Source: Vermamoeba vermiformis (taxonomy: Eukaryota). Taken from it: a stretch of DNA of 64,000 nt. The DNA is taken from positions 1 to 64,000 of the forward strand of contig JBEWZL010000127.1 of the NCBI GenBank assembly GCA_045837725.1. Reading direction: 5' to 3'. Position numbers and translations under genes: made by a program. The notes below the pieces were generated by a model that was given only the letters and a program-made list of their open reading frames with translations, searched no databases and was not told the DNA's origin. Position 1 is the stretch's first letter, and the number at the start of each line of letters is the position of its first letter. Of the stretch, positions 1,150 through 27,971 are shown piece by piece.

Positions 1150-1291
1150 TTGCTGTCCATTTGCGGTGATCGATCGGCAGTGCTGCGTGGCGCCACTTGC
1201 CTTATTTGTACATAACTGTATAAAGTTGATAAAATTCCGGTAGCGTATTTACACGCGTCATCGATCCAACACAACCACATCAAATATAAAT

Positions 1292-3058
1292 ATGGAGCAG
1301 AATGAACGCATGTCTCGGCTAGACGCAGGTATGCAATCGAGTGATAGCGGATGTGGCTAGCTAGCTTAACCCATCTAGGTTGACACGTCAATTTTCATTA
1401 GAAATTTGCGTGTAATGACGCAATACAATTTTTAAAATTTAGGCATGCTATTTTTCACCCTAAGCCACGCACAATTGTAATATTAATTATTTTTTTCAAT
1501 TTCGAAAAAGATTTTTTCACCAAGAATCTGCACTACGCGAGCACCTATTGGGAGGAGCACAGTGAAAACTTCAAAGAAATGGTGCAAAAATTAATGACAG
1601 AAGACACACTGGACAAAGTGGGAGGCAATGCGAGTGTAATGGTGCTGACGTTCAATCAGAAGACGGGCTGGATCGAGCAGCAGTACAACACCGACATCAA
1701 CACCGAGGCCTATTCCAAACTGCGCGCAGAGATCAACAAGGACAAGCTCTATTTGTGGCGCATCATGGAGGCCTATTTCGATGCCCTGCACCGTCAGCGC
1801 GCGACCTTTGTGCAGGTGAGTGGTGGTCGCAATGCCGCAGATCTGAAGAACAGTCCCGAACTGCTCAGCATCAAGCGCGTATTCAGTTCGGACCAGTACG
1901 ACGACTCCAAGCTCGCGCCTTTCGCTGCGCAGTTGTTGCCCGCGCAGTACAGCGTGGAGCAGTGTCGCGCCAATTTCTATCCGCCGCTGCTGCTGCTGTG
2001 GCTGCGCTACTTGGACATTTACGACCGCGCGGTGCAAGGCCTGCCCGTGCAAGTGCTGCTGCATCGCCTGCAACACCCGACTGTGCACAAACCTCCGCCC
2101 AAGGACGAGAAGGAACAGCTCATGCAAGAGCTCGGCAATCAGATCGCGCAGGGTGAGTGCTATTTTTAGCGCCGTGTGTGCCCGTGTATACTGACAGGGT
2201 GACAGCATTCGGCAAGAAAGAGTTCTGGGACAACAGATACGCTGGCCTGTCCCTCGCCTCGCCAGCCTACGAGTGGTACATTGCCTGGCCACACATTCAA
2301 CAGTTGCTCGTGCAGCACGTGCCGCTCTTCAGTGCCACGCACCAGGGCTCCACTCCACTGCGCGTCATGGATCTCGGATGTGGCAACAGCACTCTCGCGT
2401 AAGTACCTAATTAGGCTATGCATTGATCAATATCTCCTTCTCATCTCCGCCGTTCAGTGAACAGCTGTGGCAGGAGTACGGCACGACAGCACCGCTCAGC
2501 GAGGTATACGCCATAGACTTCTGCGACCGCGTCATTCAACTCATGCGCGCACGTCAATCAGCGCAGTCACGTGATCACGTGCACTATCTCATCGCGGAAG
2601 CACGTGATCTCACAAAGTTCTACGTGCCGGAACAATTCGTCGCGCCACCGAGTGGTGACAGCATGGAGGCGAAGATGGAGGCCCTCAAACTGAGCAAGAA
2701 TGTCGCGCGCACTGAGCACGTGATCGGAGATTTGAGTGGAACACTTCACTTGGCGATCGACAAAGGCACCCTGGACTGCATCATTTGCAGCCCTGAAGGC
2801 ATTGCAAGTATTGAGCGCTATTTTAAGGAGGTGTCGCGTCTGCTCGTCCCTGGCGGCTACTTTGTGCTCATCTCGTGCGCCATCAACAAGGAACGCACCT
2901 CATTGGTCGACGCACCCAAAAAGTACAACTGGCAAGTGCAGCACGTGATCGAGCAGACTGTCGTGCAGCAGCCTGATCCCATCGCCGCTGTGGACCCGAG
3001 TGCGAGTCAGAAGCCTGTGGAGAAGACTATCTTCACCATCATTGTAAAGAAGTTGTAA
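1292..3058 (+). CDS. Class I SAM methyltransferase (METTL13/EEF1AKMT4-like) with a long unrecognised N-terminal region
   Basis: Motifs FGKKEFWDNRY, YEWY, MDLGCGNSTLA, AIDKGTLDCI and RLLVPGGYFV. Introns at about 2153-2198 and 2399-2457. The 5' exon at 1292-1328 joins in frame via an intron to 1510, but the start is uncertain (1579 is an alternative). Confidence 0.75.
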
Positions 3059-3163
3059 TAAAGTATTTATTGGTCTTTGCACGTCGATTGGGAGTTCTGA
3101 TCTCAGCCAAAAACACTTGTCAGCAGTAGCTGTTAGAATCATCTTTTAACACGAACAAACACA

Positions 3164-3858
3164 ATGGTAAGTAGTTCATAACAATAGTATGAACGAAGCA
3201 CTGACAGACTGATAAAGGACGACGATCCTGAATTGGAAGCCATCCGTCAAAAGCGATTGGCAGAACTTCAAGCAAAGATGGTGCGTGTAATGAATACTAC
3301 GTAATAATCAATATCTAATGGACAATAGGGAGGTCAAGGACCGAATCCCCAACAAATGAAACAAGCTGAAGCTCAAAGGTAAAATAAAAAATAATTACTA
3401 ATAATTATTCAGCGCTATGCACGGCAGTACTCAATGTATATTATAATTGATATTGTATTAATATGAATTTTAAATTCAAGACAAGCCGGAGAAGAACGAC
3501 GACAGATGATCCTGTCGCAACTCTTGACTGGCGCTGCACGAGAGCGATGTATGTAGTGTCTGCTTGCTGGATCCAAATAACTCATTGCAATACTCATACC
3601 ATCGCTAGTGAGTCGCGTCGCACTTGTCAAGCCCGAGAAAGCACGCGGTGTCGAAGATCTGATCATCTCCGCAGCACAGCGCGGTCAAGTGAACACTGTG
3701 GATGAGCCACAACTGATCAGTCTGCTCGAACAGATCAAAGACAAGGAGCAGAAGGAGCAGACAAAGGTCACGGTACGTACCTCGCAGGCATCACTAGCAG
3801 CACTGACCATCGAGTGCAGATCCAGCGCAAGAAGATCTGGGACGATGACGACGATTAA
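3164..3858 (+). CDS. PDCD5: Programmed cell death protein 5 (multi-exon)
   Basis: Exons give DDDPELEAIRQKRLAELQ, RRQMILSQLLTGAARER, SRVALVKPEKARGVEDLII and IQRKKIWDDDDD*. Confidence 0.9.
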
Positions 3859-4045
3859 TACTACGAGCTGTAATTATAAGAGTACAGTGCTCGCAGTGAT
3901 GTGCATAGTGCGATAAACGGGTTATATTACCACCTGATAAACGATTATTCCGCAAATATGATCTATTTTTAGACTATGTACATGCGATTCCAAAAATGGT
4001 ATGGTACAACTATAAACAAAATTGGCAGCAATCACGTGATCGCGA

Positions 4046-7000
4046 CTACTGCGTGTAATTGACAGGTGTCGCAGTGCCACTGTTGTTCGCAGATTCAGCG
4101 GCAGATTTGGCTTTGAGTGTCATCTTGCGCAGACACTTGGGACAGTTGCCACTGACCAGCGCAAAGCAGTGTCGATGATAGACGGACTTGCACTTGACGC
4201 ACAGCGCGATCTTGTCCAGCTGAAAGGGGAACAGCACTTCTTTGCGGTTGTTGCAAATGTCGCAAATGTGTCCCTGACCACGACACAGCGGACATTGCCG
4301 CGTCACGTGCACGATGAATTGTTCCATCAACTTGTACATAAATGGCAACAACACGCCTGTGCGCACCTCCATCAAGTCTTTCAGTGAATACACGTGCAGC
4401 TGTTGCAACAAGTGCAAGCGAGACTGTGGCTCCGTTAGTTGATTGCCTTATTTGGTAATTGTTTGCATACCTGCAAAGATATGACGACAGGAGCGCAGTG
4501 TTTGCAGCGCAGCACGTACTCGGAGAGGGGGATCATTTGTCGCCGCAATTTCTGATGCATCAATGGTGAGTCACGCGCGTCAGAACAGCACAGTGCTCGG
4601 TACTTACGCGCAGCTGATTGAGTGCGGTGACCCAGTCGTAGAGCTGTGGATTGTTGACACCGACATTGATGATGGGGTCGTCAAAGTGCGAGTCAATGTG
4701 TCGCTTGGCTGCAGTGCACACCGAGTACTCCCTGAAGTCCCAGTGATGCACCACGCGTGCGGGGATGATGGCGCGCTTCTTGCTGTGACACTCGCTGCAG
4801 TAGTAGCCGCCCGTGTAGTGACAGTAGCGCACTGTCTTGAAGAAGCCGCTGGACAGCTGACGTCCGCAGCCAGCACAGCGCGATGCAGTGGTGAGCGGTG
4901 CTTTGACAGGCTGATCGAGTATGAAGGACTGGTCGTCAATGTTGATGAACATGGGCATCGAGTTGTAGTCGCGCTCGCTGAGCTGACGAGTGATCACGCG
5001 CTCATCGAACAGCTCTTTCTCGTCATCGGCTGCTGTCTTGTGCACCACATCGTGACTGTCGTCCTCTGCTATGAATAAAAAGCCTATTTTGGGCTGATAA
5101 TCATCTATCACACGCGATTGCAAGATGTAGCCCAGATTGGACTTGACATCACGTGCTGGCTCTTTCTCTGGACTGGCAAGTGGCACGGGATATGTCAACA
5201 TGCGCGTCAGTTCCGCGCTCGGATTGATGATCTGCGCTGTCAGCTCATCGTCCACTGACTCGGAAATTTCCGTCGTGTCGTCAGGAGATTGTTCGAGCTG
5301 CGAATTCGCTGCTAGCGGCGTGTCAGTCGATGGCAAAGTGCCACTCACACTGGTGTTCAGCTCATCACGTGACTCATCGTGCCAGTGACGATCTCCCAGG
5401 GCTTGTTCTACTTGTTGCAGCAGCTGATCGTGCTCGCGCATCATTGAGTCTATATTTAGCAACATGTCACCTGCTGTGCTGTCCGTGTCACCCACTGATG
5501 ACGCGGCATCGCTGTGCATGTCATCAGTCACGTGATCAATGACTTCAGGCACGTGATTGCTGTCAGTGATTTGGGACTCGTTGTTCACTGAATTTTCTTG
5601 TCGGTCATCGTGTGTCACGTGCTCGTTATTACCATTCGGTTCATCACGTGATGTTTGATCTCGGGTCGGAGATTGTGCAAGATCACGTGATCGTCGCGCA
5701 TGCCGCTCTTCAACGACATGTCCGTTCGGTGAATCAGTGTCGAGTGCCACCACGCGCTTGACTGGTCTGCGTCGCTTGCCAGCACGCTTGTCCTGTCCGA
5801 ACAAGTTCACTTCTACCAGGGCCTCGTCTCGCACGCGCTGATAATAGTCCTCGAGGTCGAGGCGCTGCTGTTCGAGACGCAGCTTGAAGGTCAGTGGCTT
5901 CACTGCGCGCAACAGCACCAGCAATATCTCCGCTGCTCGAGATTGCGTCACGAGCGCATTCAGTGAAAAGAACTGGCTCATCTGTTCGTGCGGTGTGTCA
6001 ATCAGGGCGCGGAACAATTCATCCAACAATTGCTGATTGGCTGCTTCAAACAGCGCAGCGCGAAAATAGCCTAATTTGGAGCGAATAGTGACAGGTCCGA
6101 TGGTGTCACCTGTCACTTCTGTCACGTGCTCGGGATCATCGGAGAAATTGACCGCTTCAATGAGAGCACGCACGCGCGCGATGAATTCGCGTCCACGTGA
6201 CCAGTGCAGTTCGAGCAGTGCCACCCAGTCCCACAACTGACTCGCGGCACCTGTCAGTCCTTGACGCGCGATCACTTCGAGCTGTTGGAGCAGGGACACA
6301 CCGCGCTGCGTGTAGATGGGCAGCGGATTGACGGCGTGTTCCTCGAGCAGGGCTGCAATTTCCTTATATAGTTCGTAGAGCAGTTCGCGATCACGACTGC
6401 TGATGCTGCTGTCACTCGTCAACAGCGCGGGCACGTGACTGAACTCCACGCTGGACTGCGCGGCATCCTCGACGGGAGATTGCGCGTAGATTTCTTTGGG
6501 AGAATCGAGTTGTTCCGAGCTCGGTGCGGACTCTCGACCAGGGCTCGGAACTTCTTCCTCGTCTGGCAAGATGACAGGTGGTCGTGTGGGACTGTTTGAC
6601 AGGTGTCAGTGCCCTCCGCAGAACTATATACATCGTGTCCCTATGAGACCAGTACGTACATCATGGGCTGCGCGAGCCAGTACTTCTCTTGATTCAGCTG
6701 CGGATCTTTGAGTTTGAGACTGAAGTTGACGGGGCTAATGCTCTCCAACAGCGATATGAACAGATTGCGCTCATCTTCATTGCGCAATAGTGCATAGTCT
6801 TGATAATGCGACTCGGTCAGTTCTGGATGCCACACCAAGGACTGGATGTACTCGGCCAAACAGTTGTTGTTCAGCGCGTACCGTACAAATATACGCGCAC
6901 GACCCTCTGCAGACTGACCGACAGTTCTGCACAGCACAAGTCACTATTAATAGGTGCACAGAGAGAGTGGTTCGTTACGTACTTGATTTCATCGATTAAC

Positions 7001-7481
7001 TGCGCGACATGAGGGCCAGGCAGACACTCTTCAAGATGCGACAAGTAGTCCCACACTGTCTTGCGCGAGAACAGTCCCTCTAATAGGCTCATATGTCAGT
7101 CGAGTTCTCGCGTTGTTGCATTAAATTCAAATAAATCGATAGTTAATTTACATCAATATTCACAATAAGAGTGAGCTGTTCCTACACGAGTATATTGATC
7201 GGCCATCACAATTGTGATATATTAATAATATAATAAAAATTTCAGCTGACCTTTCAAGCCGTGCGAGAGAATTTTCTCGATCGCGAAGCAGAGACGATTG
7301 ACATTAGCGTCAGCCGTAAAGGGTGCATTGATGCGTCGTGTCTTGTAGTAATTGACCCATTCAAATATGTCGTGCAAGGCCTGACGGAGCTCATCTAATA
7401 GCCCCTTGGCAATAACTAGCAGGAGTTAATTATGAATGTGTGCTAGCAGCAGTGGATCTACGCACCTCGTTGTTGAGACAT
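4046..7481 (-). CDS. RUN-domain plus Rubicon-homology (PLEKHM1/DEF8-like) Cys-rich protein
   Basis: RUN-like GRARIFVRYALNNNCLAEYI..YQDYALLR. C-terminal CAGC..RYCHYTGGYYCSECH..IPARVVHHWDF and CPLCRGQGHICDIC..FPF..CPKC. Confidence 0.85.
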
Positions 7482-7596
7482 AGCTCCCTCGCTGGTGAGG
7501 AATCAGAGAGCAATATAGAGCTCTCTCGTGGTCTCACTCGCGTGTTCAATAAATGCACTCAGATCTGTTCGCTGTTATTTTTTACACACCCCAGCC

Positions 7597-7962
7597 ATGG
7601 CAACACAAATGATCAGGCACGGCTTTGCAGAGGCCGTAGTTATCTCCAAGAAGATGACCAAGACCGTCATGGTCAATGTCGATCGTGTCGTCAAGCACAA
7701 GAAGTACGGCGTCACGCGCAACATGACTTCCACGCTGATGGTGCACGATGAGCTGAATGAAGCAGTGCCTGGCGATAAAGTGCTTATTAGACAGACGATG
7801 CCCATTAGCAAGAACAAGCATTTCATAATTCACGATATTATCAGCAAATACAAACCAGCAGAATTTTTGCGACTGAATCCAGAGTTGAAACCAAAGGGCT
7901 ATGAACAAGCAAAACAAAGCACCAATATTAATAAGAAAAAACAAACTAAGACCAAGAAGTAA
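7597..7962 (+). CDS. MRPS17: Mitochondrial ribosomal protein uS17m (bacterial-type S17)
   Basis: VVISKKMTKTVMVNVDRVVKHKKY..VHDE..GDKVLI..PISKNKHF. Confidence 0.9.
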   Translation: MATQMIRHGFAEAVVISKKMTKTVMVNVDRVVKHKKYGVTRNMTSTLMVHDELNEAVPGDKVLIRQTMPISKNKHFIIHDIISKYKPAEFLRLNPELKPKGYEQAKQSTNINKKKQTKTKK

Positions 7963-8086
7963 TAATGTCAATATTTATAATAAACTCAACACTCATGTAA
8001 TTATCCAAATAATTTAACAAATGTTTTTATTTAGATGCAGCTAGATAATCGACAAATATACATTATTGCAACATATAATACAGCCA

Positions 8087-9242
8087 CTATTTTTTAAAAG
8101 GATTATTGAATACATTTTGGAACTCAAACCCACACGAAGTCAAGATTTGGGCCGTGGCTTGCTTCGTGTCTGTCGTGGGCAGTGCGAAGTCAAACCAGTG
8201 CGTGAGAGGCACTGAGTGCGCAGAGGGTTCATATTTAACTTTAATAGGGCTCTCATGCAGCTCTTGCAGTCGTGCATTCAGCGTGGCCAAGTGCTGCTGA
8301 TCCAACTCGCGGAACTGAGCCCGGATGTGCTGCGCGAGAGTGAGTACGACAAGTGGATAGAAGCAGTAGTATGTACCTGCATAGGGCTCTCACTATCAGC
8401 ATTGCGTTCAGCCAAGCGTTCGAGTTGTCGGATCGGATCTGAGTGACACATGAGCAGTGTCGGGGACCAGTGCTGTACACGGTGAGTACGATGAGCTAAG
8501 TGTCTGGTATATACGTATATATATATACACCTACCTGCAGTAGTTCGAGGGCGAGAGATTGGGCCCAATCATGACCGTGCAGCACTGGACTCAGCGGGGA
8601 ACGGTGTACGAAGAGCACATCTGACTTGTACTGCTCGGGTGCGCGCTGTGGGCCTGCGTCAGTACACTAGTGCACATATTGTACATCTCGTACATACCTG
8701 ATATTGCACTTGGTGCGTATCTAAGGCACGCACAAAGTCACTGAGCCATGCAAGAGATGTGGCTGCGGTGAGTGGTGAGAACAGCGCAGAGTGTGGGGTG
8801 GTATATATAGATGATATAGAAGATGTAGAGGTAGCGTCTGATGAGGACATGCGCGCGCAGTGATCGAGATAAGTCTGAACATGAACTTTAAAGCCCATCT
8901 GACAGATCCACCGATCAGTAATGCAGATAGATACGGCAGTAATTTTAATATATAATATATGCTTACCTTATTCAATCGCCACAGCACTCCTTGCTTGCCA
9001 GTGCCCGGCAGTCCCTCTAAAAATATGAAGTGCAATTGCCCTCTCGCACGATTGAACTTCCGCTTGTTCACCACTGTCGCTGATTGGCTGAAGAAGTTGT
9101 GCAGTGACGGTGTGGCTGCAGTGCGCGCAGTAGTGTGCGTGCTCGTGCTCGCATCTGTCACTTCACTCTCGCGCAGTCGCGTGGTGTAGCGGCGCTGAAT
9201 GCTAAGCGGGCGTACTACAGTGCGCGCTAGTGCGGTGTACAT
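8087..9242 (-). CDS. P-loop nucleoside/nucleotide kinase-like protein, probably mitochondrial (multi-exon)
   Basis: Arg/Thr-rich presequence-like N-terminus, Walker A FLEGLPGTGK, and a spliced exon with VLFVHRSPLS resembling the DRS motif of dNK/TMPK-like kinases. Confidence 0.55.
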
Positions 9243-9451
9243 GAGTGCTGCGATACTGTCCTGCACTGCCACCTCTCGCCCCCTCCTCACCCGCACTCTC
9301 TACCAGGGCTGCCACGTCACTGCCGCATTTTTCCAGCGCAGCAGTGAGCTCACCAGTCAGTTGTTGCATTTGTTGCGTGTAGTAACAACATATCTACTGC
9401 TACTACTTGCTATCAACAGTCTCGTACTACTGCACTAACCATTATCGCGAT

Positions 9452-11484
<2,033 letters not shown>

Positions 11485-11677
11485 GCACTGGTCGATGAGC
11501 ACTCTAGATCCGCCACCTAATCGCTGATGTACATCACTCACTGTTTAAAATCAATTTTGTAATAAAAACTCGAATATAATAAAAACCTTTAAAAATGACC
11601 TGCAGCCCTTTTGTGCCGTGCATTTACTTGCTGCGAGTACAATGGAAGTGACACTAGTGCGTATATATTACATGAGT

Positions 11678-12537
11678 TCACGTGCGCAGCCAAGGATTAG
11701 CTCGCTCCACCGCGCTGTGATACGAAGTGAGCAGTTGTTGTCGCACGTACGACACATCTTCTGCATCGAGAGCACTGCGCGCAATCAGAAACAGGGGCAC
11801 TAGTAGCGCTAATAATAGCCGATCAATGGTCATGCTTGGTACTGTCCACAGCACGAGCACTGAGGCGAGCAGATGTGGGTGACGCATATGAGTGTAGAGG
11901 CGTCGAGTGGCATCAGTCTTGTCCTCGAGGGGCGTAGTCTTCGTATTGAGTATATAGTGATAATAGAGATGCTTCACGCCACTCATTTCAAAGTGGTCAA
12001 AGAAGAAGGTTTGTACGACGAGCAACATCCAGCCAAACAGATGTGTCCAGTGCAATATTGTTGCCACCGAACTGCGTGGTTTGGCCCATAGTGTCCATAA
12101 TGTCGTTGGTGTCCACAGCAGCATGACGATCTGGTCAGATATTCATTAGATACTAAGCCCGCCAAAACTAAACAATAAACACGCGCAGTACCTCGATGAG
12201 AATGAGTGCGCATATGACGCGAATAGGCTGCTTGAAGAGCGCGGTGGAGAGTTGTTCTGTTTGGGTGGTTGCTCGATCGAACAGCGCCACGGCTACACGT
12301 AATAGCAGCAGATCGAGTGCGAGTGGCGCAATAAACTGCGAGACCATCGTGCTTATACTAACAGTGCCTAGTGTAGCGGTGGTAATTTGACGCGCAAGTA
12401 ACTGCCATCCACTGCTGCAGGGGCACGGTGAGGCTGTTGAGTTGTGGCTCGCTTGTCAGCCACCGAGCACAGTGCGCAGCTGTTAATAGCAAGGCTGCAT
12501 ATAGAGGCAGTGCGTATAATACGAATAACAGCCGCAT
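11678..12537 (-). CDS. NRM: Nurim / MddA-family membrane protein
   Basis: PLALDLLLL, FDHFEMSGVKHLYY, LYTHMRHP, WTVPSMTIDRLLLA and LDAEDVSYVRQQL. The N-terminal part (MRLLFVLYAL..) joins only with a 1-nt shift in the G run at 12420-12423 or a weak intron. Confidence 0.75.
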
Positions 12538-12681
12538 TGATGGTGTTCAGCTGCACGAGCAATAAAATAAAGAATGAAGTCCACGAGCGCAGTCTTCGTG
12601 ACGTGTTCGAGTGAACAACACTGATCAGTTCAATTGACTGAGCTATAGTTATTATATTGCATATTAGTTGAAACCAGCACA

Positions 12682-13666
12682 ATGAGTTGGGGTGAGTATG
12701 GCAGATCTGTTTTCAGCAGTTAATTAATTCTCAACATTATATTATTCAAATATAATGTTATTTCTACCATAAATTATTATTCATTAATGCACCACAATAA
12801 ATTGTTATTTTTAAATTGTTGTTAATTTGTTGCGACGTGATCCGATCTAATTAACAAATTCGCAGAGGACGCTGATTTTGATGACTTCAAGCCCGCTAAG
12901 GATACACCTATCGTAGCCAATCAATGGGACGATGAAGACAAACCAGATCTGAATATTGAGAAAGAGTCTTGGGAAGATGAAGACAAGCCAGATCCAACAC
13001 CCAACCCCACACCCAAACCCAATCCTCCAGCCAAGAAGAAGAAGTCACAAATGCGCAAAGACCAATTAAAAGCAGCTGAAGACGACAAAGTGGTGCCGCT
13101 CTCGAACGAAGAGAAGCTGCGTCGTCGCGAGATGGAGGAGAAAGCAGATTTCGAACACACCAAGTCACTGCTGGGCTTGGAGGGCGAAGAGGAGAACGGC
13201 AAGAAGGGTCGCACTGACTTGGAGCTCTCTGACCTCTCCGTCGTGGTGCCTGTCAAAGCTGAGCCTGTGGCAGTCGATCTGTCCTCGCTGAGTCTGAAGA
13301 GCAGCGCTGGATCTGAAAAAGAATTCGATCAAATTGCGCAACAAGTCGCTGGCAAGTTGACGGGATTCAGCAACAACACGCACTATCCTTATTTGGTCAA
13401 AGCACTGCTCAAACAGCTCACGCACGCGATGGATGCAGAAGAAGTGCGCGAAGTGGGCAAGAGCGTCGATTTGATCTACAACGAGAAGGTCAAGCAGCGC
13501 AAGGGTGGCAAGGTTACTAAAAAAGGTAATGTCGATCGATTAGGTGCACCGGCAAGCGATACTAACACGTGTGACAGCAACGACTGCAAAGAAAGCAGTT
13601 AATTTGGGCCGCGAGTCCCTGGCGAATGACGAAGAAGTGTTTGACGAGGCCAGTGACTTTATGTAA
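12682..13666 (+). CDS. EIF3J: Translation initiation factor eIF3 subunit J
   Basis: MSWED.., QWDDED..KESWEDED, EEKLRRREMEEKADFEHTKSLLG, and a C-terminal DFM*. Confidence 0.9.
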
Positions 13667-13766
13667 CGCGTTAGAGCATATAAATCTGTTTCAATAATAC
13701 CTGTATCTGTGCGCTAATTACCGGCCATTTTATTCGGAGAATATGTACAAATAAGGCAATGCCTCG

Positions 13767-16700: not shown

Positions 16701-17137
16701 AATTAGCGCTGTAATTGGCTCCGTGGTGGCGCGGTCGATCGCGCTGTTCGTAGTACCGCTCGGGGGGTCTGTCGTAGTGTCTGTAGATACATTAATATTC
16801 TGCTTCATCATTGCATGTACTGCAGTGATAAAGTGATGTTCAACTGACCTGCGCGCGTAGTGATCGTGATCTGGTCGACGATTGTAAGAAGAAGAATAAT
16901 TTGGTCTTCGTTGAGTATCTTCGGGTTGATCTACAATACGAGGTAATTAATATAGTAAAGAATTAATTATTAATGAGGAAAGTGAATTAATTTTCATTTT
17001 CAAATTGGCGCGATCTGTCGAAAGTACTAGAATTCAGAGTTAATCATTCTAATACACATGTATCATAAATACATGACATAATTTAGTAATAGCTAATTAC
17101 CAACAATAGCTCCCTCTTCTTCGGCTGAATCTGCCAT
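13767..17137 (-). CDS. SET1: Set1/KMT2 histone H3K4 methyltransferase (multi-exon)
   Basis: WIN motif [38 protein letters not shown] and post-[16 protein letters not shown]. First exon [12 protein letters not shown] at 17137-17101. Confidence 0.95.
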
Positions 17138-18166
17138 GTCTAGATCCGATCCACCAACAATCAATAATTATACAGGACAATTTTGTGGTGTTGATCCTGG
17201 GGTTTGTGAATAAGAATAACAACTTTGCCGCTGCCATCGTCGCGGAAATTTCTGTGTTGGCCGAGAATTCTAAAATTTTTCGGATTAGATCGTGAACGAA
17301 AGCAGACTGATCAGGAAACAAGATGTCACCGAACAAACCTGGCCTAACGGGCAGAGTAATAGTGCATATGAAGACAAAATAAGGAGATGAACAGCCGGTT
17401 ATCGTCAATTGAACCTGCACGTCTAAGGGGACAGCCAGGCCAAGTGGCTGGCCAAGCCTTTGCTGCACTCATCATAGGGCAAGGTTGTGTTGCCCTTTCT
17501 CTAGTAGTTGCTGTGTTGGGCCTTGATAACCTTGATTTGGTGGGCCTACATCCCTCTTGAGCACCGAGACTACATTTCCAAGTTGCTGGTAAATGATTTT
17601 GGGTAAACTACAAGACCTACTGCACCACCACCAAGGTTAATAGTGTTCGGTGAGAAAAGAAAGAGAGGCAACAGCCAAGTAAAGCTCAACATCCCTGTGC
17701 AACCAATGTTCAGAAGCCCTGCTAGAGCCAGGAGAACTTGACTACAATCTCCTCCAGGTGAATTTCTATACCTGTGCAGAAGGGAGGTTGTCCTGCACAT
17801 GGTGAGCAAGGTGTCCGTCCATGGTCAGGGTGTCTGTCCATGGACAGGGTGTCCACCGTGTATGGGGCATCCACCGACCTTAGTAATTCACCAATTCAAA
17901 TGCACCTTGCTTCAGTGTGTAGAACATGAATATAATATGGGTGGTTTTTGCTTTCTGGTGGCTGAGGAGTGCTGTAGAACGGAGAGTAGGAGGGGATGAA
18001 GTTGCCATACATTGGTGATTTCAGCAAACCCCATTTAAGTACTAGCACAGAGATTAACCACCCGTACAAAGATTGATTATGAATTTTCTGGCCATTTTGT
18101 TGCTTACATATGAAGAACTCCAATTGAATTTAGTTGCAAAAAAAGTGTTACTTTTAAGGAACCAAC

Positions 18167-18391
18167 CCGGGGGACGGCGGGGCCGAATTGGCCAGGGTGG
18201 CCAGTTTGGTCAGCCACCCAGATTTTTTCTAAGTCCAATAAATAAAAATCCATGGGGGGACGGCCGGGCCGAATGGTGCAGTAATAGTATACTAATGCCT
18301 CATATGTACAGACGCACCAGTTGGTGCCTTGTACCATACCTACATACCTGGCCGGCCACACTGGCCAACTTGGCCTGGCCGACCTCCCATG
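18167..18391. repeat. Nested GGCC-rich direct and inverted repeat
   Basis: GGGGGACGGC(C/G)GGGCCGAAT at 18169 and 18255, with an inverted degenerate copy at about 18353-18391. Confidence 0.6.
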
Positions 18392-18624
18392 CATCAATAG
18401 TTCTGTATAGAACTTGGTGTATTTTCAATTCATTACAGATTTTGTAGTGCTGAAAGGGTGTGCATCTCAACTTTTTTGTATCGGGTTTGATTTGAGTGCA
18501 CGCATAGATTTGAAAGCTGCTTCATAGTTATTGAAAATGTAAACATTTGGAGCCAAGTGCAGAAGTAAGTTCTGTGATAAGTCTACTTTTTCCAGCTCCT
18601 TTAGAAGTTGTCCAAGACTATTGG

Positions 18625-18716
18625 ATACACTGGTTATAGCAGAAACATATCAATAATACAAAATCTATACACCGGTTATAGCAGAAACATATCAATAATT
18701 CAAAATCTATACACTG
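18625..18716. repeat. 42-bp tandem duplication
   Basis: ATACAC(T/C)GGTTATAGCAGAAACATATCAATAAT(A/T)CAAAATCT twice (units start 18625 and 18667), plus a partial unit at 18709. Confidence 0.9.
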
Positions 18717-19026
18717 TCAAGAAAACCTAAGGTCAGCGGACGCCCCGTCCACGGTGGACACCCTGCCCATGGTGGACATCCAGCTCACATATGCTAGCTC
18801 CAAGAGCTTGCTGGCCAAAGAAAAAACATAAATCTACTTAGAACTAGTCATTTTTATGTGCATCACCCAGGCTCTGGTGTTAGCAGCAAAAAGAAAAAAA
18901 TAAAGAATGGAACTTATCTCTGGTGCTGGGTTCTTTAAATATAGCCTCCATAACTTGCCCAATGCAGCATAATGCACAGCAGACCTTGCATCCAGATGCT
19001 AATGGACCCCTAGATCTGCCTCCATG

Positions 19027-19270
19027 GGATGGCCAATCCTGTGTGGATGACTAGACAGCCAGGGTGAGATGCCAGCCCGGCTAAGTTATCCAGCCTGGAC
19101 AGTAATAACTCGGCGAATCGTAATACTATGTTCTTAATTGCATGAATCTTTGTTACTCAAATTGAATGCATTAGGTCACCCAAAGCAAAAGAAGTTCGTT
19201 GCAAACCCTCCATATACTTTTCTGCTGGCTGGACATCTCAGCCATGTCATCCACACTGGATTGGCCATCC
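19027..19270. mobile_element. 244-bp MITE-like element with 25-bp terminal inverted repeats
   Basis: GGATGGCCAATCCTGTGTGGATGAC (19027-19051) matches the reverse complement of 19246-19270 with one mismatch. Subterminal inverted repeat at 19065-19077 / 19227-19240. Confidence 0.65.
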
Positions 19271-19378
19271 TCCAACACTACTGGCCATTCTGTTCATATT
19301 GAGCAGAACAACCCCAGAAGCTTCCATAATTACTTAATTTGAACAAAGCAGTTATTTACATCCATCTATTTACAGCAT

Positions 19379-21060
19379 TTACAACGTTTTGTGCTGGAAT
19401 TTGAGCGAAACAAACCAAGCAAAGAGCGTGAACAACGCGCTGGGAATGAATATGAAGTCAAACCAGCGGTGATAGAAGTTGAAGTGAATGTTGCTCAACA
19501 GCTCCGTGATGATGGTGCGGTACTGCAGCGGCAGTGACATGCGCATCAAGAGCACGGAGGACACAAAGTACATGCCCTGCACGTGACTCATCATCAGTGC
19601 AATCCACACCGCGCTGTCGTGCGAGGAGTACTCGTTGAAGATCTTCATCAGCTGCTTCAAGAAGCCGCGGATCGAGGTGGCAATCATAATGCCGATCATG
19701 CAGAACGAGATGGACTGCGACCAGAACTGCACGTCAATGTTGATGTGCAACAGACCGAGGGCAATGCGCAGTCCGAGCGTGACTGGATCGTGCTTGATGA
19801 TCCGATCGAACACAATGTTGATCGTTGCCTAAATGCGGTAAGTGCGCTGTCGCTGAACGTTGTAGTGGCCCTTACCATAAATAGCTTGTACAGACAGTAG
19901 CCCGAGAAGAAATAGCCCAAAAAGTTGTAAAACTTGCCTAATATGGTGCGACTGAATTTGATGCGATCTTGTTCCATCTTCAACTCGCTCATTTCTAAAA
20001 ATAGCTCGCGATTGAACTCTTCGAGCGATGAAATTTCGTGTTTGAGCGAGGTCTCAGTGATCACGTGCTCGTGCTGCGCGGTCGAGGGCTGCATCCACTG
20101 CTTGAGCGCGCCGAGGCCCCAGCCCTGCAGAGGAGTATTAGTATATATTGATTATACTTCTATTCGACATTCATATGGCGCCAGTACATCACATATGCCA
20201 GTCACTCCATGACTACTACGACTGGATCCAACACCTACCGCGCTGTTCACGATCTGGTCCTCGCGGTCAGTGACTTGACTCGCTCGTCCTGCGCGCAACA
20301 ACAACAACTTGCGCTTCTTGAGCAGTATCTTATCTGCACCTTGTTGTATTTGGCGCTCTAGTGTCGCAACATCTTGGTCTGAGATCTTGCGCAAGAAGTA
20401 CGAGATGTAGAGGAACGGAAAGTTGACGGCACCGTAGCCAGACAAGAAGGCCATGACAGTGACGCCTATGATGCCTATTCTGCTGATGAATACGTTGATG
20501 ATGCGCGTGTCCCAGCTGAGCGGCGTGCTGGGCTGCATCTCGCCCTCGAGTTGTACGGGCAAGGGCTCGCCAATGCGCCACATCAAGTACATGAAGCCGA
20601 GCTGCAACACTGCGCATAGTGTGCCCAATCGGCGCACATTGGTGATCTTCAAGTAGTTCTTGAGTACCATGTAGATCTCGTAGCAGGGTAAGATGCCGAC
20701 CAGCAACACCACGGCGCACAAGAAATCTATCTTCCACATCACCCATCGCGTGCTGCAATAGCAAGGTGTTAGTTGAAAGTACTATATGGAGTTGATGGCA
20801 GTAAATATTGAAAATAAATTAACAATTAATTCAAATAAATTCGTGCAGCCTTACTCGCGGTTCAATACATCGACAATTTCAAAGATGATGAGTTCAAACA
20901 TCGAGCAAGACACCATAAATGTCGCTGAGAATAAGAGCTGTGGTTTCTTCGAGGAGATGTCATAATCGCGCAAGAGCAGTCGCTGAAAGAAATAATTTCC
21001 AAATAAGAAGAACCCTGCGGAGGTGATGCCGAGCAAGAGCAGATCTGAGAGCAGTGTCAT
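19379..21060 (-). CDS. GPR89: Golgi pH regulator / GPCR-type G protein (GPR89/GTG family)
   Basis: FSATFMVSCSMFELIIFEI, SRIGIIGVTVMAFLSGYGAVNFP, GMYFVSSVLLMRMSLPLQYR and FYHRWFDFIF. Confidence 0.95.
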
Positions 21061-21203
21061 AATTAGTGCTGTGTTGGTCTTGTGTGCATGGTGACGTCAG
21101 ACTAACATTCTGGGAGAGTTTTTCTGGGCAGTGCAAAATAAGAGTTACCAAATTAGGAAATATCAGTTATTTACAAGCAGGGGATTACAACGACTATAGT
21201 ACA

Positions 21204-22444
21204 TTACAGCGCAGCTTCGCAGTGCGGACAGAGCAAAGCCAAGCTCAGATCTGCTCGCGCCTGTTTGTACTTGGTGAGGCACGGTTCATGAACGAGACAG
21301 TCACGTGACTGCGCGTGACACTCGCGGAGGTGATCTGCAGGGTCCGCAGCAGACTCGTAGCATATGACACTAAACAGAGGTGAGTTACAGGTGCGCACTA
21401 CAATCACGTGATCACTGACCAATGCGGGCCCTGCTCCGAGCTCGAGTGTGGCGCGTAGATCTTGGTGAGCTCGCTGGTCTGCAAATAACACAGGTCAGTA
21501 CGCACGCGACACAAAGGGGGCTGACAGCACGCACCAGCAAGGAGCGCTGATAGAGCACGGGATCGTTGGCCAGCACGCGCAGCACTTTGAGCAGCACGAA
21601 CAGCAAGTGCGTGCAGTGGATGCCACGCGATGCATTCGCGCAATTGCACGTCGGAATGTGTCCGATCTTCACCGTGTACACCGTGCCCTGGGCGAGCACG
21701 TGATAGGTGTGATCGAGTGCGCTCTCAGTCACGTGGTGCACGAGGCAGTGGCGCTGCTGTCGCGCGAGGTCAATGCGCTCCAAGAGTGCCTTGCTCGGAG
21801 CACTCCGATAGCGCGAGAGACGCTTCTCGACACCTGGCACGTGACTCGACTCACTCGAGACCTGCACTGGGACTGGCGCACTCGCAGTGACACTTGCACT
21901 CTGCGGTGTGACACGCGGTCGTTTGACACGTTGCGCGTCAGAAGTCACGTGCCGCGCCCAGTCCTCGTCGTCGTCCTCGTCCTCGGAAGAATCACGTGCG
22001 CGCTTCACACCACTCACGGACTCACTCGCGCGGGTGTGTTGCTTCAGCCACGTGACAAAGTGTGCCACTGTCAGAGGTCGCTCGTTGACACCTGTCTCGA
22101 TCACGTGACGCGTCCACTGCGCGAGATATTTGATGACGAGTGCGGTCTTGTTCTGATCACTCGTGTCGAGCTCAGCAGTGTCAGTGAGCTCAATGTGATG
22201 GTCTTCGAGCACTTGCATGAGCTGTTGCATCTCTCCCAAAAACAACTCGCGATCTGCAGCATGAACGGGGAATTAAAATTGAATTTGAGACTTTTCGACA
22301 AATACGAATATTATACTACGAGTCCTCTAATTGATAGTATAAAATAATGGCGATATTTTAAAATTATTTGCAGCACGTACCAGCAGGGGACATGGTGCGC
22401 AGTGCTGGATCTGACAACACCGTCGCGACTTGTGCAAAGTCCAT
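21204..22444 (-). CDS. SWIM zinc-finger plus C-terminal RING-variant protein (ZSWIM2/MEKK1-like module)
   Basis: YTVKIGHIPTCNCANASRGIHCTHLLFVLLKVLRV..LYQRSLL, and a last exon with ICYE..C..C..HEPC..CPHC. Confidence 0.75.
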
Positions 22445-22672
22445 GGTTAGTTGAATCGAGACTCGTATTGGTTGTGATCGATTAATCTGTGGTGCAATGT
22501 CGTCAACAGCGACACATTACTCGTTACTCCTTCTCTGCGCAGTTCTCTAGTTCTTGACCGAGCACGTGACAGCGTCAGATCTGCAAATTGGTTTTTTGTG
22601 TGAGCTCAAGGTTCATTCTCACTTTGAAATTCTAACACAACACCACCGCGCTATTAATTATACGCGTAAAAC

Positions 22673-24033
22673 ATGCTGCAGCGTGTTGTTGTAAGTGCGC
22701 TACGGCGACAAAACAGATGGGGCTCTCTAGCGCGAGAAAATCGACAAAATACAACCGCACTGCTTGCGAATATTCACATAAATAATAACAAAAATTGTCC
22801 CAATGCTGGCAGCATTAAATTATATGCCACAAGTAAGCAGATCGTAACCGTTCGGGCGTACCAGCGCTGAACTCATCAATTAATTCCAGGAAAGAAAAAA
22901 TCAACACCCGACATTAACGCAGCTGCGTCGTCAAGTTTAGACAAGTTGATCAAGCAGATCGAAGCACAGTACGGCGAAGGTACCTCATTCAGATCTCGCA
23001 TTGCGCACTGAACTGATTTGTTCCTCGCGCAGGCTCGCTGATCAAGATGGATTCAGCAGCAGGGTCCTATGACCCCACGCGCTCAGGTCCGCCAGTCAGC
23101 ACAGGGTCCTTGGCGGTGGATCACGCACTCGGCATCGGAGGACTGCCGCGCGGTCGCGTGGTGGAGATCTTTGGACCCGAATCGAGTGGCAAGACCTCGC
23201 TCGCACTCTCTACCCTCGCACAGGCCCAGAAAGCGGGTCTGAACTGCACCTTCATTGACGCCGAACACGCGCTCGATCCAAAGTGGGCGCAGACCTTGGG
23301 CGTGCAGCTCGACAAGCTACTCGTGTGTCAGCCAGACAGCGGTGAACAGGCACTGAACATTGCCGACAGTCTGATTCAGAGCGGTGAGATGCACGTGATC
23401 GTGATCGACAGTGTGGCAGCCCTGGTGCCGAAGAATGAATTGGAGGGTGAGATGGGCCAGACAGTGGTGGGCGGACAGGCGCGCATGATGAGTCAAGCAC
23501 TGCGCAAGCTCACTGCCGCACTCAACAAGTCCAGCACGCTGCTCATCTTCATCAATCAGATACGCATGAAGATTGGCGTCATGTTCGGCAATCCCGAGAC
23601 GACGAGTGGAGGGCAGGCACTCAAGTTCTACGCCTCGGTGCGACTGGATGTGCGACGTACGGGCACGGTGAAGAAGAGCAACGACGAGGCCATGGGCAGT
23701 CAGGTCAAGGTCAAGGTCGTCAAGAACAAGGTCGCTGCGCCCTTCAGAGTGGCTGAGCTCGAGATTGACTTCAAGAGCGGCATCAGCAAGAGCGGTGAAC
23801 TCGTGGATCTCGGCCTCAAAACTGGTGTATTGACGCGCCACGGTGCTTGGTATCACATCGCTAAGACGGATGAGAAGCTGGGCCAGGGACGCGACAAGGC
23901 AAAGAAACATCTCGAAGACCATCCAGAGCTCGCGGATCAGGTGTACGAAGAGATCAGAGCGGCACTGATGAGCGAGCCCTTGCCTATTGAAGAGGGCGAG
24001 GAGGTCTTGGAAGAGGAGAGTGAGACTCCTTAA
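22673..24033 (+). CDS. recA: Bacterial-type RecA, nucleus-encoded, probably mitochondrial
   Basis: [41 protein letters not shown] and [22 protein letters not shown]. Basic presequence and two 5' introns. Confidence 0.97.
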
Positions 24034-24236
24034 GTGTAGTGGCAGATGTGTTAAATAAAGGAGTCACTATACTCTTTACTCTACTCTATTACTCGCACAG
24101 TTCAATTTGTACGCGATAATTCACACTGAATGTGCATCCACTGATTCTGACTTATTTCTGATGTGCACTGCTCAGTCCATTGGTAGTACCACACTTTGCA
24201 ATATAAGCACCACATTGCACTCTAAGCACCATCAAC

Positions 24237-25993
24237 ATGAACGCCAAGCCTCAACTGCAGCGCATTCCTATTGCACATCCCACACGCCAGAGCGCAGAAC
24301 TGCTGACCTTGCCCGATGAACTGCTCGTGCTCGTAGTGCGCTACTGTGGCTTGCACGGCACTGCACTGCTCGTGACTACGTGCAAGGCTGCAACGCTGTT
24401 CGTGGACGAGCAGCTGAGAGCAGATCTGTTCCAGCGAGCATTAGCTGCGCGGTAATAATTCGCATAATTACTGGACACTATCCGTTATTAACGGCATGGC
24501 TCAGATCTGACGCGGAAAAAAAGAAACTGCTGTCTCGTCGCGTGGAAGAGCTGAAGCGAGTAAGACCGCACTAACAGCATCGTACTGTATAGTATATAAG
24601 TAGTGACCGCTATTAATGCACTCTTATTCACCCTGCAGCGCGCAGTGTGCTACAATGACCCCGCGCACCTTGATCAGTGCTACAACACGCCGCTCAATCA
24701 GACCAGTGCCACCGTTGAATTGCGTCCCGAAATAGGTTATTCCGCCATCAAATCTCGGCGCAATCTCCTGCAGCTGATCGAGGAGTACGACGCGGACAAG
24801 GTGTTGAGTGCCCTGGTAGAGCTCTGTGCGCCTGACGTCGTCGTGCACGCTCTGTTGCGCGAGTACAGCGAGGGATTGACACGTGTCAAATCGAGGTTCG
24901 TGTCATCGCGTGTCGGTCACGTGACACTGAACACACTGGCACGACACTCGCAGCTGATTGGCCAGTTGATCATTGGGCACGCCAATGTCGACGAGATCCT
25001 GGTACGTGTCACGTGCTCTGTGCGACACACTGATTGACATCTCGTTCACTGAACAGCCGCGCGTACAACCTGCGACATTGTTGACAGCGCTCGTGAACGA
25101 GAAGAAATTTCCCTTCAAACCACGTGATTGGCTCGAATTGTGTTGTCTGAAGGCGCAGGAGTCGCTGTTTGACACGTTGCTGTCACGCAATCCAGCCCTG
25201 GCACGTGACGCGCCATTTATAGCCCTGGTGCTGAATCAGCAGTGCGGCACTCGTCCGAGCAGTGCGGCGACAGCAATTCTGGAGAGTGCTGTCAAACACG
25301 GTGCAGATGTCAATCAGCGACTCCCAGAGAATATTCCGCTCCTCTTTCGCGTCAGTGGCACTGTGCACTCACCACTCGCTATTGCCCATTTTGGCTACAA
25401 AGGCAGCACGCGCATTGCCCTGGTGGAGTGGCTGCTCAAGCACGGCGCGAGATATTCCGCTGCAGAAGTGCAAAGCTTCAACGCCAACACCGCGCTGTCC
25501 GCTGAGACACGTGCCTTGCTGGCACTCAACCAGACCTACGTGCCACTGAACAAAAAAGGAGCGCTCAACCAGGGCAAGAAACAGCACAAATTTGGCAGTG
25601 CTGTCGCGACACTGCTGCTCGACACCAAGACCTTCAGTTATTCCGTCGGAGCTGAGAGCTACAAACACGAGCGCACCGAGTACAGTGGCACGTGGCAGTA
25701 CAACAAATCTGCCGCGCAGATCACTCTCAGTGCCACCGAACAGCGGAAATTCACGCCGCGCTCGAGCTTCAACCAGGGCAGCACGCACGTCAAGAGCTGC
25801 AGTTTGACATTCAAGTTTGGCCTCTACGCGTGAGTAGCAGTCACGTGCTCGGCCATGTGACACGCACTGACACTTTGACACGCACTGACACTTTGACAGG
25901 ACACACGACGAGCGAGTGATGCTGCTGTCTAGTGGCATCAACATGACGATGCTAAAATTAGAACAGCTGTACGAGCTGCTCTTGGCGGAATAA
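24237..25993 (+). CDS. F-box protein with ankyrin-like repeats (multi-exon)
   Basis: F-box LLTLPDELLVLVVRY; ankyrin-like VKHGADVNQ and LVEWLLKHGA. Confidence 0.6.
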
Positions 25994-26143
25994 ATAAGTA
26001 TGCAGCGCCATCGACCAGGGTTCATAGCCATAAATAGACACGAGTGACACGTGATTTATTGTCGCAGGGACCACCGCGCCTTTTTAATTTCACGAATCTG
26101 ATCGATCATATCCTGCAGAGCGGAGAATTAATCACTTGCCATT

Positions 26144-27971
26144 CTAGGCAACTGCTGCTATATTTAGACTCACCTCCAATATCTCTTTCTCGCTCATTCG
26201 AACCAGCACAATATTCCGCATGGTGGCACTCAGTGTATCGCGTAGCAGTGCGCGGTCCTCCTCGACCGTGGTGGCATATTGCCGCAACAGATCTTGCGCC
26301 AATTTCAGCACCGTGTTCAGCGCGGCCTTCTCGTTGAGCTCGTGCACGGGAGATTGCCGCGAGATACGCTCCCGGTACTGCGCGTCAGTGAGCTCCGCGC
26401 CAGTCATGTGCTGCACACGTGCTGCTGTCAACAGATCGTTCGGAGCTACTCCGCGTCGAATCATGAACTGCGTGCTGCGGAATAATAGCGGTCAGTCGCT
26501 GCTGCGCTATATTTAGACCTACTGTTTGATGCCCGCCAGGGCCAGCAACTTCTCTTTGCTGTCGCGGTGCTTGTCACGTGCTGGCAGCGGAAATTCTATC
26601 ACCACCACGTCATCGAGATTTCTGTCAATTTGTGAGTGGTCAGTTGCGGTGATTTTCAGTGAACACTCGATGGCGTACCTGGGAAAAGTAAATCCGTACT
26701 CGAGGAGATATTCCGCATTGGAGAGCCGCTTGTTGGTGGCATAGGGGATCAGAATCTGCGTGCCCTGGGGGATGAACACTTTTGCCAAATAAGTCAAGCG
26801 CTCCTCGTCGGTGGTGACAGTCACGTGCCACTCCTCAGCACGTGCTTGCGGACTGGCAGCATTGGCGAGATCAGCGAGTGGCACGAGTGCGCCGTCGTGC
26901 TGCGTGTTGAGTGCGAACATGCGCGACCAGATCACTGGCAAAGTGCCACCGCGTGTCAGTGGGGGACTGCTGAATAGTGCACGTACCTGATAGCGCCCAT
27001 TCAAAGCCTGATTTGGTAATGTTCACTTGCCACGTGGCAGGAGCGGTGGCATCGATCAGTCCCTCGGAGATTAGCTGCGAGATGTCAGTTCACTGCTGGC
27101 AGGTGCACGTGACTTACTTGCCAGTGCCGCTGAACACCATCACGACGTCGTTCAGTGAATTCTGTCCGTGAATGAGTCATTGCCATATTAGGACATCACC
27201 GTACCTTTGAGCTTGCTTTGCTGCAATTCTTGCAATTCTTCGTCGGAGAAATAGTAGCTGGTGGAGAAGGACTGCGGTAAAATACTGCAAAGAATAGTGA
27301 GCTATAAATAGTGACAGCTGCAGCGTCCAATCAGCGCACTCACTCCAAATAAGGACGCCAGTACGAGTGCGGATTGTTCCGCTCGTTCAGCAGCAGCAGC
27401 GCCATCTCGTCGGTGGCACCCAACGGCTGGTCCTCCAAGTACCACACCAGCTCTTGCACTGCGGTGCGGTGCTGTGCTGTCACGTGCTCGTCAGTCAGGT
27501 CCAGTGCGCGGTGCTCGATGTTGGCAGGAGTGAGGGCGAGTGACCAGGGCACGGAGAGCAGCACTTGGCCGGGCTAGTGGGGGTAGTGGTCAGTAACATA
27601 TTCTTAGCAGCGGTGAGGGGGGGTTGAGTGCTGCACTGGGCTGCATTCATTCGCGGAAATTACAGCCAATGTGACATCACATTCCATTAGCAATGATATG
27701 ATAATTAATGAGGACCATGGTGGCTGTGTATGAGATACTGCGAGACCCTTTGGATCCGGATCCAGCTGCTACTTCGCCTTACCTGAATGTCAGCTGTAGC
27801 GACAAGACCACGACCATAATTATCAAACTCCTTAATGTCTATTTTGTCGAAGATTGCGCCGCCTTGTCGCATCCAAGCTCTGAACGCGTCATATTCATCG
27901 CTCTTGGCTGTTCCTATCAGCACCGCCACAACGACTATGACTCGCAGTAGATTGTACACCATATATGGCAT
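26144..27971 (-). CDS. SETD3/Rubisco-LSMT-type SET protein methyltransferase with a hydrophobic N-terminal signal-like peptide
   Basis: GRGLVATADI, SYWRPYL, WSRMF, LVPLADLAN and SNAEYLLEYGF, plus an LSMT substrate-binding tail (YATTVEEDRALL..VRMSEKEIL). Confidence 0.8.
27605..27771 (+). ncRNA. Candidate structured RNA antisense within a 209-nt intron
   Basis: Nested helices TAGCAGC/GCTGCTA, GGGGTT/GACCCT, GAGTGC/GCATTC, TCGCGG/CTGCGA, ACAGCCA/TGGCTGT and TGGAT/ATCCA. The G-U pairs work only on the + strand. Confidence 0.45.

Follow-up and report, generated by a model that had tools for sequence, protein, structure and literature searches.

Predicted transcription-factor sites concentrate in gene bodies around a repeat core, a putative centromere, in Vermamoeba vermiformis

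The locus in the window

The window, meaning the whole stretch of 64,000 nucleotides analysed here, opens a contig of 315 kb (JBEWZL010000127.1, hereafter C127) in the Vermamoeba vermiformis assembly GCA_045837725.1, a genome of 43.3 Mb in 309 contigs. In a tree of the single gene RPN2, built from 28 of at least 120 matches, a relative of 97% identity joined a clade that includes Arcella with a support of 0.999, which points to a probable amoebozoan host. It contains a SET1 gene, a repeat core that adjoins the 5′ end of SET1, and 18 exact copies of CTA(A/T)4TAG, the binding consensus of MEF2-type MADS-box factors, as shown in Table 1. An earlier sequence-only reading of the window had listed the same 18 positions, every one of which was exact on re-scanning, and had noticed no site after about 28 kb, in agreement with a last site ending at 27311. 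The motif occurred 0.47 times on average and three times at most in 100 dinucleotide shuffles. Its spacer length is specific, with 18 copies of CTA-W4-TAG against one with W3 and none with W5, and CTA was the best of the 64 palindromic 3-mer arms. A genome-wide scan returned 4,865 copies of CTAW4TAG against 1,515 of the reversed control, so that the 18 sites in 28 kb of the window greatly exceed the genome average, which is about three per 28 kb. A repeat or transposon footprint was ruled out as the source of the sites, their flanking contexts being unrelated.

That many sites lie in coding exons, as had been claimed, held for 10 of the 18, which fall in predicted coding sequence (CDS), but introns, with seven, were the densest class, and one site is intergenic. 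Rare AT-rich codons are indeed forced by the sites: among the 6,544 leucine codons of core-proximal genes, 166 are CTA, of which 33 lie within MEF2 or CArG sites.

The SET1 gene contains eight MEF2 sites, as counted before (six coding and two in one 56-nt intron), together with four CArG boxes and 23 E-box sites (CACGTG). The TAG of the MEF2 site at 15239-15248 doubles as the 3′ splice site of this intron. Synonymous opportunities in SET1 were used in six of seven cases for MEF2 and in 23 of 30 for CACGTG. None of the MEF2, CArG or E-box sites lies inside the SET domain, which offers zero synonymous opportunities for MEF2 or CACGTG. The encoded protein holds 14 His-Val (HV) dipeptides against 3.3 expected; the SET1 proteins of three relatives carry 1.0–2.4 HV per 100 aa, and the median among 116 distant SET1 matches is 0.

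Table 1. Features of the window around the SET1 gene and the repeat core (CDS and intron assignments as predicted; amino acids encoded across a site in one-letter code)
Feature	Position	Strand	Remarks
GC-rich (0.50-0.52), motif-rich domain flanking core	1..30000	.	left edge is the contig end
MEF2 site	2160..2169	.	predicted intron
MEF2 site	3963..3972	.	intergenic, between convergent genes
MEF2 site	5450..5459	.	CDS of RUN + Rubicon-homology gene
MEF2 site	6944..6953	.	predicted intron of RUN + Rubicon-homology gene
MEF2 site	11809..11818	.	predicted CDS
SET1 gene, N-SET + SET	13767..16930	-	5′ end approximate
MEF2 site, SET1 CDS	14920..14929	.	CTA TTA ATA G, L-L-I-D
MEF2 site, SET1 CDS	15144..15153	.	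A-K-N-R
56-nt SET1 intron, MEF2 at 15239-15248 and 15279-15288	15239..15294	-	skipped by RNA-type contig (joint 15238>15295)
MEF2 site, SET1 CDS	15440..15449	.	S-K-N-S; relative P0133 has A-K-N-S, site still compatible
MEF2 site, SET1 CDS	15509..15518	.	S-K-Y-R
MEF2 site, SET1 CDS	15666..15675	.	L-F-L-E
Four SRF-type CArG boxes, SET1 CDS (15732, 16037, 16053, 16598)	15732..16607	.	
MEF2 site, SET1 CDS	16697..16706	.	A-N-Y-R
Putative-centromere core, inverted-repeat/MITE mosaic, non-genic	17100..19350	.	2.2 kb, CpG observed/expected 0.39, 0 E-box, 0 MEF2
MEF2 site	19995..20004	.	predicted CDS, directly right of core
MEF2 site	25952..25961	.	short terminal exon as predicted; of the CDS assignments the least certain
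Three MEF2 sites (26158, 26507, 27302)	26158..27311	-	predicted introns of one gene; right limit of MEF2 zone

Motifs and cognate factors

Both K and M flanks are present on 87 of 116 MEF2 sites, and 54 of the 116 read CTAAAAATAG, with an A-rich centre. The identity proposed for the motif agrees with the accessible part of PMC1513395, in which KCTAWAAATAGM is listed as the MEF2 consensus and matrices are tabulated. Core, fixed spacer, A-rich centre, K/M flanks and the presence of MEF2-type genes are all shared with the MEF2 binding site. A search for MADS-box genes yielded four, two of MEF2 type (L001 and L002, with PF00319 matches) and two of SRF type (L003 and L004, so labelled from reading the translations); the MEF2-type label was likewise assigned by reading the translations against MEF2 sequence. 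The genome also holds five bHLH and 10 TALE homeobox matches. Compared with reversed controls, CCW6GG occurs 9,040 times against 1,887 and TGACASSTGTCA 3,977 times against 10 genome-wide. Further words enriched near cores include CCAATCAG, GATTGACA, TGCCACCA, ACTGCGCG, GTTCANTGAA, CACTTTGA, CGGAACAA and ACCAGGGC, some of which are presumably NF-Y, PBX/TALE and TCF sites. Many unrelated motifs, including MEF2, CArG, E-box, TALE and CCAAT, rise together near cores, and it is highly probable, judging from the sequence, that the sites are bound by factors in vivo.

A single repeat core per contig

Sequence related to the core was found on at least 63 contigs, 38 from a first query and the rest from two further queries and local BLAST. 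A single core locus was observed on 62 of these 63 contigs, which are not whole chromosomes, the exception being C235; in a rough model with 64 random placements on 70–150 equal contigs, the one-per-contig pattern appeared in none of 20,000 trials. Three contigs with a TTAGGG end (C8, C44 and C127) carry one core each. The second C235 locus (376 kb) is a lone miniature inverted-repeat transposable element (MITE) with AT-rich flanks, one E-box in 9 kb and four MEF2 sites, so that some short matches among the 63 may be strays. These AT-rich flanks also rule out the MITE by itself as the cause of the dense covering of sites, here called the carpet. Among the loci examined directly, 18 of 19 consist of a CpG-poor core of 1–10 kb with GC-rich, motif-rich flanks, and the twelve first-examined loci held 101 MEF2 sites in 240 kb against five controls, ranging from 1 to 15 per locus.

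The cores have a CpG observed/expected ratio of 0.49, against about 1.0 in the flanks, and a TpG/CpA value of 1.33. Repeats are common to all 132 of 132 core-core pairs, with one match outside cores in 624 kb. One of the repeats held in common is a MITE of 640 nt, bounded by terminal inverted repeats of 26 nt (L122:4817-5456, G000:C73:85.8 kb), whose copies are 80–95% identical in about 39 contigs and which is apparently targeted to cores. Within a 10-kb core (L052:8049-9260, G000:C239), a CpG-poor open reading frame of 403 aa with DUF7869 was also noted, and it may encode a transposase that mobilises the core MITEs. No tRNA genes were found in 12 cores, and a strand-skew switch of the replication-origin kind was looked for at the core and not seen. 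Cores often lie at contig breaks.

Small regional centromeres are built of inverted repeats or transposon remnants and occupy one non-genic locus of a few kb per chromosome, which the core resembles. As in regional centromeres, there is one locus per contig, non-genic and repeat-rich, with repeats common to the cores. Given one non-genic, repeat-built and apparently methylated locus per contig, the core is very probably a small regional centromere. The apparent methylation is read from the base composition, and the genome encodes cytosine methyltransferases, both BAH-bearing and chromodomain-bearing. One of these genes, L127 (G000:C11:560347-563613), encodes a chromodomain cytosine methyltransferase labelled chromomethylase-like from its predicted protein, and further genes, labelled in the same way, are DNMT1-like (L125), DNMT2-like (L128) and DNMT3-like (L130).

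Extent of the motif-rich domain

The MEF2 sites are regionally clustered and accompanied by E-box and TALE sites, as the sequence-only reading had suggested; it had overlooked the repeat core and the chromosome-scale pattern as the cause of the clustering. The window itself holds 78 CACGTG sites in positions 1-28000 against 38 in 28001-64000. Across loci, MEF2 sites per 100 kb numbered 8 in the core, 65, 31, 49 and 30 in successive zones from 1.5 to 30 kb, and 3, 0 and 6 from 30 to 120 kb. Small samples from farther out gave 16 and 4; the samples beyond 10 kb were drawn from fewer contigs, and C3 was picked for its cluster. The corresponding CACGTG densities from the core outward to 120 kb were 56, 326, 265, 293, 159, 70, 52 and 49. 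The GC content drops from 0.51 to 0.405 away from the core, more slowly than MEF2; the GC peak round cores was observed at fourfold degenerate sites (0.70 vs 0.49, outside motifs), in introns (0.43 vs 0.345) and, only slightly, in intergenic DNA (0.40 vs 0.38).

Compound sites, with TCACGTG at most 25 nt from a MEF2 site, numbered 176 genome-wide against six for the reversed control. Among the first 100 of the 176, 83 lie on core-bearing contigs, 73 of these 83 within 36 kb of the core, and the other 17 lie on 11 contigs without a known core. Where lengths are known, 52 of 59 compound sites fall within 36 kb against 13.6 expected. In a prediction test on nine motif clusters from contigs without a then-known core, a core was found within 35 kb for seven (C56, C66, C132, C115, C73, C102 and C77, the last 34 kb away), and no core was found for the clusters on C36 (55–95 kb examined) and C75 (100–120 kb examined).

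Subtelomeric samples (49 kb from four contigs, including some CpG-poor stretches) held one MEF2 and 20 CACGTG sites. A subtelomere or contig-end effect was ruled out by these motif-poor samples and by the position of the C127 telomere, which lies at the opposite end of the contig. At that end (L041, G000:C127:314.9-315.2 kb), a subtelomeric tandem repeat of about 39 nt leads into TTAGGG. An identical E-box and MEF2 compound 22-mer was also observed at the extreme start of C86 (position 115) and C139 (position 118) of the same assembly (G000), and it is probably a shared terminal repeat.

Position of the sites within genes

Gene classes are predictions of our own self-trained gene finder, trained on 624 kb of the genome with 21 seed introns; it recovers the SET1 intron 15239-15294, itself a seed, and fuses some neighbouring genes. 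Synonymous codons were shuffled 60 times across 183 kb of CDS, from 121 genes that lie no farther than 30 kb from a core. Coding MEF2 sites numbered 56 against 1.2, a 47-fold excess that answers the check by synonymous shuffling in favour of the earlier claim, and the same test gave 59 vs 6.2 for CArG, 549 vs 169 for TCACGTG and 46 vs 0.7 for the TALE dimer. The controls gave 3 vs 2.1 (GATW4ATC), 4 vs 4.7 (GGW6CC) and 155 vs 110 (GTGCAC). Arm genes showed 4 vs 0.4 for MEF2 and 48 vs 20 for CACGTG. The synonymous opportunities realised were 29% near cores vs 6% in arms for MEF2, and 64% vs 23% for CACGTG. Shuffling of codon order cuts TCACGTG to 46, which indicates that the protein sequence itself is skewed, and core-proximal proteins are enriched in HV (2.44-fold), HVT (8.7-fold), HVI (9.5-fold) and SRD (4.3-fold), with arm genes at about 1.

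Densities per 100 kb near cores in introns, CDS and intergenic DNA were 146, 31 and 28 for MEF2, 299, 346 and 34 for CACGTG, and 124, 26 and 4 for TALE dimers. The listed motifs occupy only 4% of the CDS, and the spread from gene to gene runs from 0 to 21 motifs per kb. Of 47 intronic MEF2 sites, 16 are ended by the 3′ splice AG and the other 31 lie away from splice sites, so a splice-signal origin accounts for at most 16 of the 47. Some introns of about 50 nt, such as 41163-41211 of the window, were seen to be nearly filled by E-box and TGATTGACAGGTGTCA sites, the latter presumably PBX/TALE-like.

The motifs amount to 0.7–1.4 per kb upstream of the ATG, 2–3 in the first 300 bp and 4–8 beyond 400 bp, and enrichment upstream or near the start, as for promoters or enhancers, was tested on the sites and not found. 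In short introns near cores the density climbs from 2.9 per kb within 300 bp of the ATG to 16.7 beyond 800 bp, and in those of the arms from 0.7 to 2.2 with distance from the ATG. Ten asymmetric words show no preferred orientation relative to the core; a few words are sense-biased in CDS, for which codon constraints can account. The sites show no orientation to gene or core (intronic MEF2 sites 12 and 13 in the two orientations), and a directional signal of the Chi or KOPS kind was ruled out, there being neither a coreward nor an outward bias.

Conservation of the sites

Conservation at synonymous sites, which the sequence-only reading had put up for checking, was observed in one segment and is weak overall. 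In a diverged metatranscriptome contig covering 15635-15792, none of eight third positions within three motifs had changed against 12 of 23 outside (p 0.01, or 0.04 with a stricter callable edge), the comparison covering a single 95-nt segment. The MEF2 site at 15666 has no listed change in this contig despite changed neighbouring third positions. Same-species contigs (X12) carry one of 16 listed differences in motif bases against 2.3 expected, a comparison with no power. All six coding SET1 sites are compatible, by eye, with the protein of a relative of 86% identity, in which two are kept compatible via S-to-A changes retaining the NCT codon. The site at 14920 is lost in a relative of 68% identity, and the SET1 of relative P0135 is HV-rich at other positions. 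Two metagenome scans for DNA of relatives gave no confirmed locus.

Explanations for the carpet

We consider it somewhat more probable than otherwise that a carpet of about 60 kb of factor sites in genes defines or protects a MITE-based centromere of 2–3 kb on each chromosome, or arises there by conversion drive. Among the particular readings, the one we tentatively put first, at less than even confidence, is that selected, position-free factor occupancy would shield genes from a methylated centromeric core. Each chromosome would have one small methylated core built of MITEs as its centromere, and genes within about 30 kb of it would be selected for factor occupancy throughout the gene body. 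A site would only have to be strong and its factor abundant (MEF2, SRF, bHLH, TALE, NF-Y and others), with order, spacing and orientation irrelevant. Occupancy would hold gene bodies open and resist spreading centromeric chromatin, whether 5-methylcytosine and heterochromatin or CENP-A, and sites would collect where they disturb least, at a distance from the promoter: in introns, at synonymous positions and in parts of the protein that are not constrained. Protection fits with the BAH- and chromodomain-bearing cytosine methyltransferases encoded here, and the periodic An/Tn clusters (PATCs) of C. elegans offer a precedent in the accessible part of PMC4947018. Genes with codon use of the highly expressed type carry fewer sites (rho -0.24, p 0.017), which also favours shielding. 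Several observations weigh against it: the density forms a plateau with an edge and not a decay, and gene by gene shows no trend with distance inside 30 kb (rho -0.02); CpG-poor subtelomeres lack a carpet, which therefore does not accompany methylated DNA in general; promoters, where protection would cost least, are not enriched; nine of 102 genes are site-free and one 3.6-kb CDS 7 kb from a core has no sites; and the GC rise at fourfold sites is not accounted for by the listed motifs.

The plateau of MEF2 with its sharp edge near 30 kb would be better explained if binding served the centromere and not the genes, defining a domain of about 60 kb for cohesin loading, tension, early replication or centromere clustering, with gene bodies far from promoters as a harmless location. 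The yeast pericentromere is similar in size to this plateau, and MADS and HMG-type factors bend DNA. The carpet is also centromere-specific, absent at subtelomeres, with a density independent of gene function and orientation, and a similar role has been proposed for human pericentromeric islands of transcription-factor binding sites (TFBS) in the accessible part of PMC9264310. We nevertheless regard such a structural code as rather unlikely, given the strong variation from gene to gene (0 to 21 per kb), the uneven domains (1 to 15 MEF2 per 20 kb), a 5′-to-3′ gradient that appears at low amplitude in arms too, and the lack of a strand-skew switch at the core. Molecular drive, which we hold to be unlikely, would need no benefit: where gene conversion is frequent, a protein-covered allele would be broken less and would donate, fixing sites, GC-biased conversion would lift GC, and purifying selection would clear promoters and conserved domains. 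GC and motifs do climb in the same domains, the lexicon is indiscriminate, sites turn over between relatives, and the distortion of proteins (HV, HVT, SRD) is as described for uptake sequences in the accessible part of PMC2817400; but motif density does not follow GC at third codon positions among genes (rho -0.13, not significant), and MEF2 drops more sharply than GC. The usual behaviour of meiotic breaks, which tend to be promoted close to bound factors and suppressed by centromeres, also counts against drive.

The sequence-only reading had proposed that dense sites in genes compensate for tiny intergenic regions, in effect as ordinary intragenic enhancers. High-affinity motifs, the presence of cognate factors, a compact genome and weak enrichment in arm genes speak for this, but intergenic DNA and the 300 bp next to the ATG are depleted of sites, and the sites are tied to chromosome position and not to function, with unrelated housekeeping genes carrying all motifs. 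Since the sites avoid promoters and 5′ ends and lack orientation, being confined to about 30 kb on each side of a once-per-contig core, the compensation idea is not supported; intergenic DNA is also no larger in the motif-poor zone at 30–60 kb (25 of 118 kb vs 53 of 263 kb), and we judge intragenic enhancers improbable. A by-product of composition, codon use, splice signals or a repeat family is hardly credible as a general account. It could draw on the 16 intronic MEF2 sites at a 3′ splice AG, on the GC-rich domain and on the mildly raised GTGCAC control; for coding sites it is refuted by an AT-rich motif 47-fold over synonymous shuffles in GC-rich CDS, and reversed and spacer controls are flat, flanking contexts unrelated, most intronic sites away from splice sites and orientations equal.

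Relation to known systems and significance

The motif is known, and what appears to be new is a carpet set by chromosome position and overprinted on exons. In contrast to MEF2 regulon promoters, the predicted sites lie in unrelated gene bodies. At yeast centromeres GC dips and a single Cbf1 site lies inside, RTCACGTG being the budding-yeast CDEI-type (Cbf1) site, whereas here a GC peak holds hundreds of sites outside the core. Exonic factor sites (duons) shape codon choice and are reported near 5′ ends, though contested; here the sites lie away from 5′ ends, at 47-fold over the synonymous null. Cyanobacterial HIP1 and the bacterial DNA uptake sequences are iterated short motifs of the same kind. 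The accessible part of PMC2817400 describes uptake sequences as short motifs in coding DNA that inflate peptides and favour poorly conserved segments. Encoded peptides are likewise inflated in core-proximal proteins, but uptake sequences and HIP1 involve one motif genome-wide in bacteria and the carpet at least ten eukaryotic factor motifs restricted to a domain.

PATCs, as far as the accessible part of PMC4947018 describes them, lie in gene bodies, are enriched in domains and densest in introns, and have been proposed to protect from repressive chromatin. The carpet shares this gene-body, chromosomal-domain and intron-dense pattern, protection here being a proposal; PATCs are, however, periodic tracts in non-coding DNA, and the carpet consists of discrete factor motifs, in exons too, round one core. 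Human TFBS islands, with many factor motifs round centromeres and a proposed architectural role (accessible part of PMC9264310), lie in megabase heterochromatin, whereas here the motifs lie in unique protein-coding genes and few occur in the repeat core. For protists, the full-text papers searched, mostly non-subscription, yielded no description of genes beside centromeres in which factor motifs are concentrated.

Strong factor sites are commonly held to be avoided in gene bodies, and here the load reaches up to 47 times the synonymous expectation, is set by distance from one locus and visibly alters proteins. If the proposal is true, the carpet, whether protective, defining or driven, would amount to a code of chromosome position, paid for in altered amino acids and so far undescribed in eukaryotes. 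The cores provide candidate centromeres for an amoebozoan, a group in which positions are mostly unknown, and a way to predict them from sequence; the accessible part of PMC9528979 states that centromere positions are still needed for Acanthamoeba. The pattern makes testable whether exonic factor sites are under selection, and whether occupancy alone insulates genes or shapes a pericentromere. It is also a warning that, in such genes, codons and amino acids evolve in response to pressure at the DNA level.

Additional observations

A bacterial-type RecA gene with introns (PF00154) lies at 22824-24033 (+) of the window and is probably mitochondrial; a gene at 40250-42876, described as next to it, presumably encodes a Twinkle-like helicase. 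The SET1 region is present in sequencing runs under at least eight organism labels, which suggests that the amoeba is often carried along in samples taken for sequencing.

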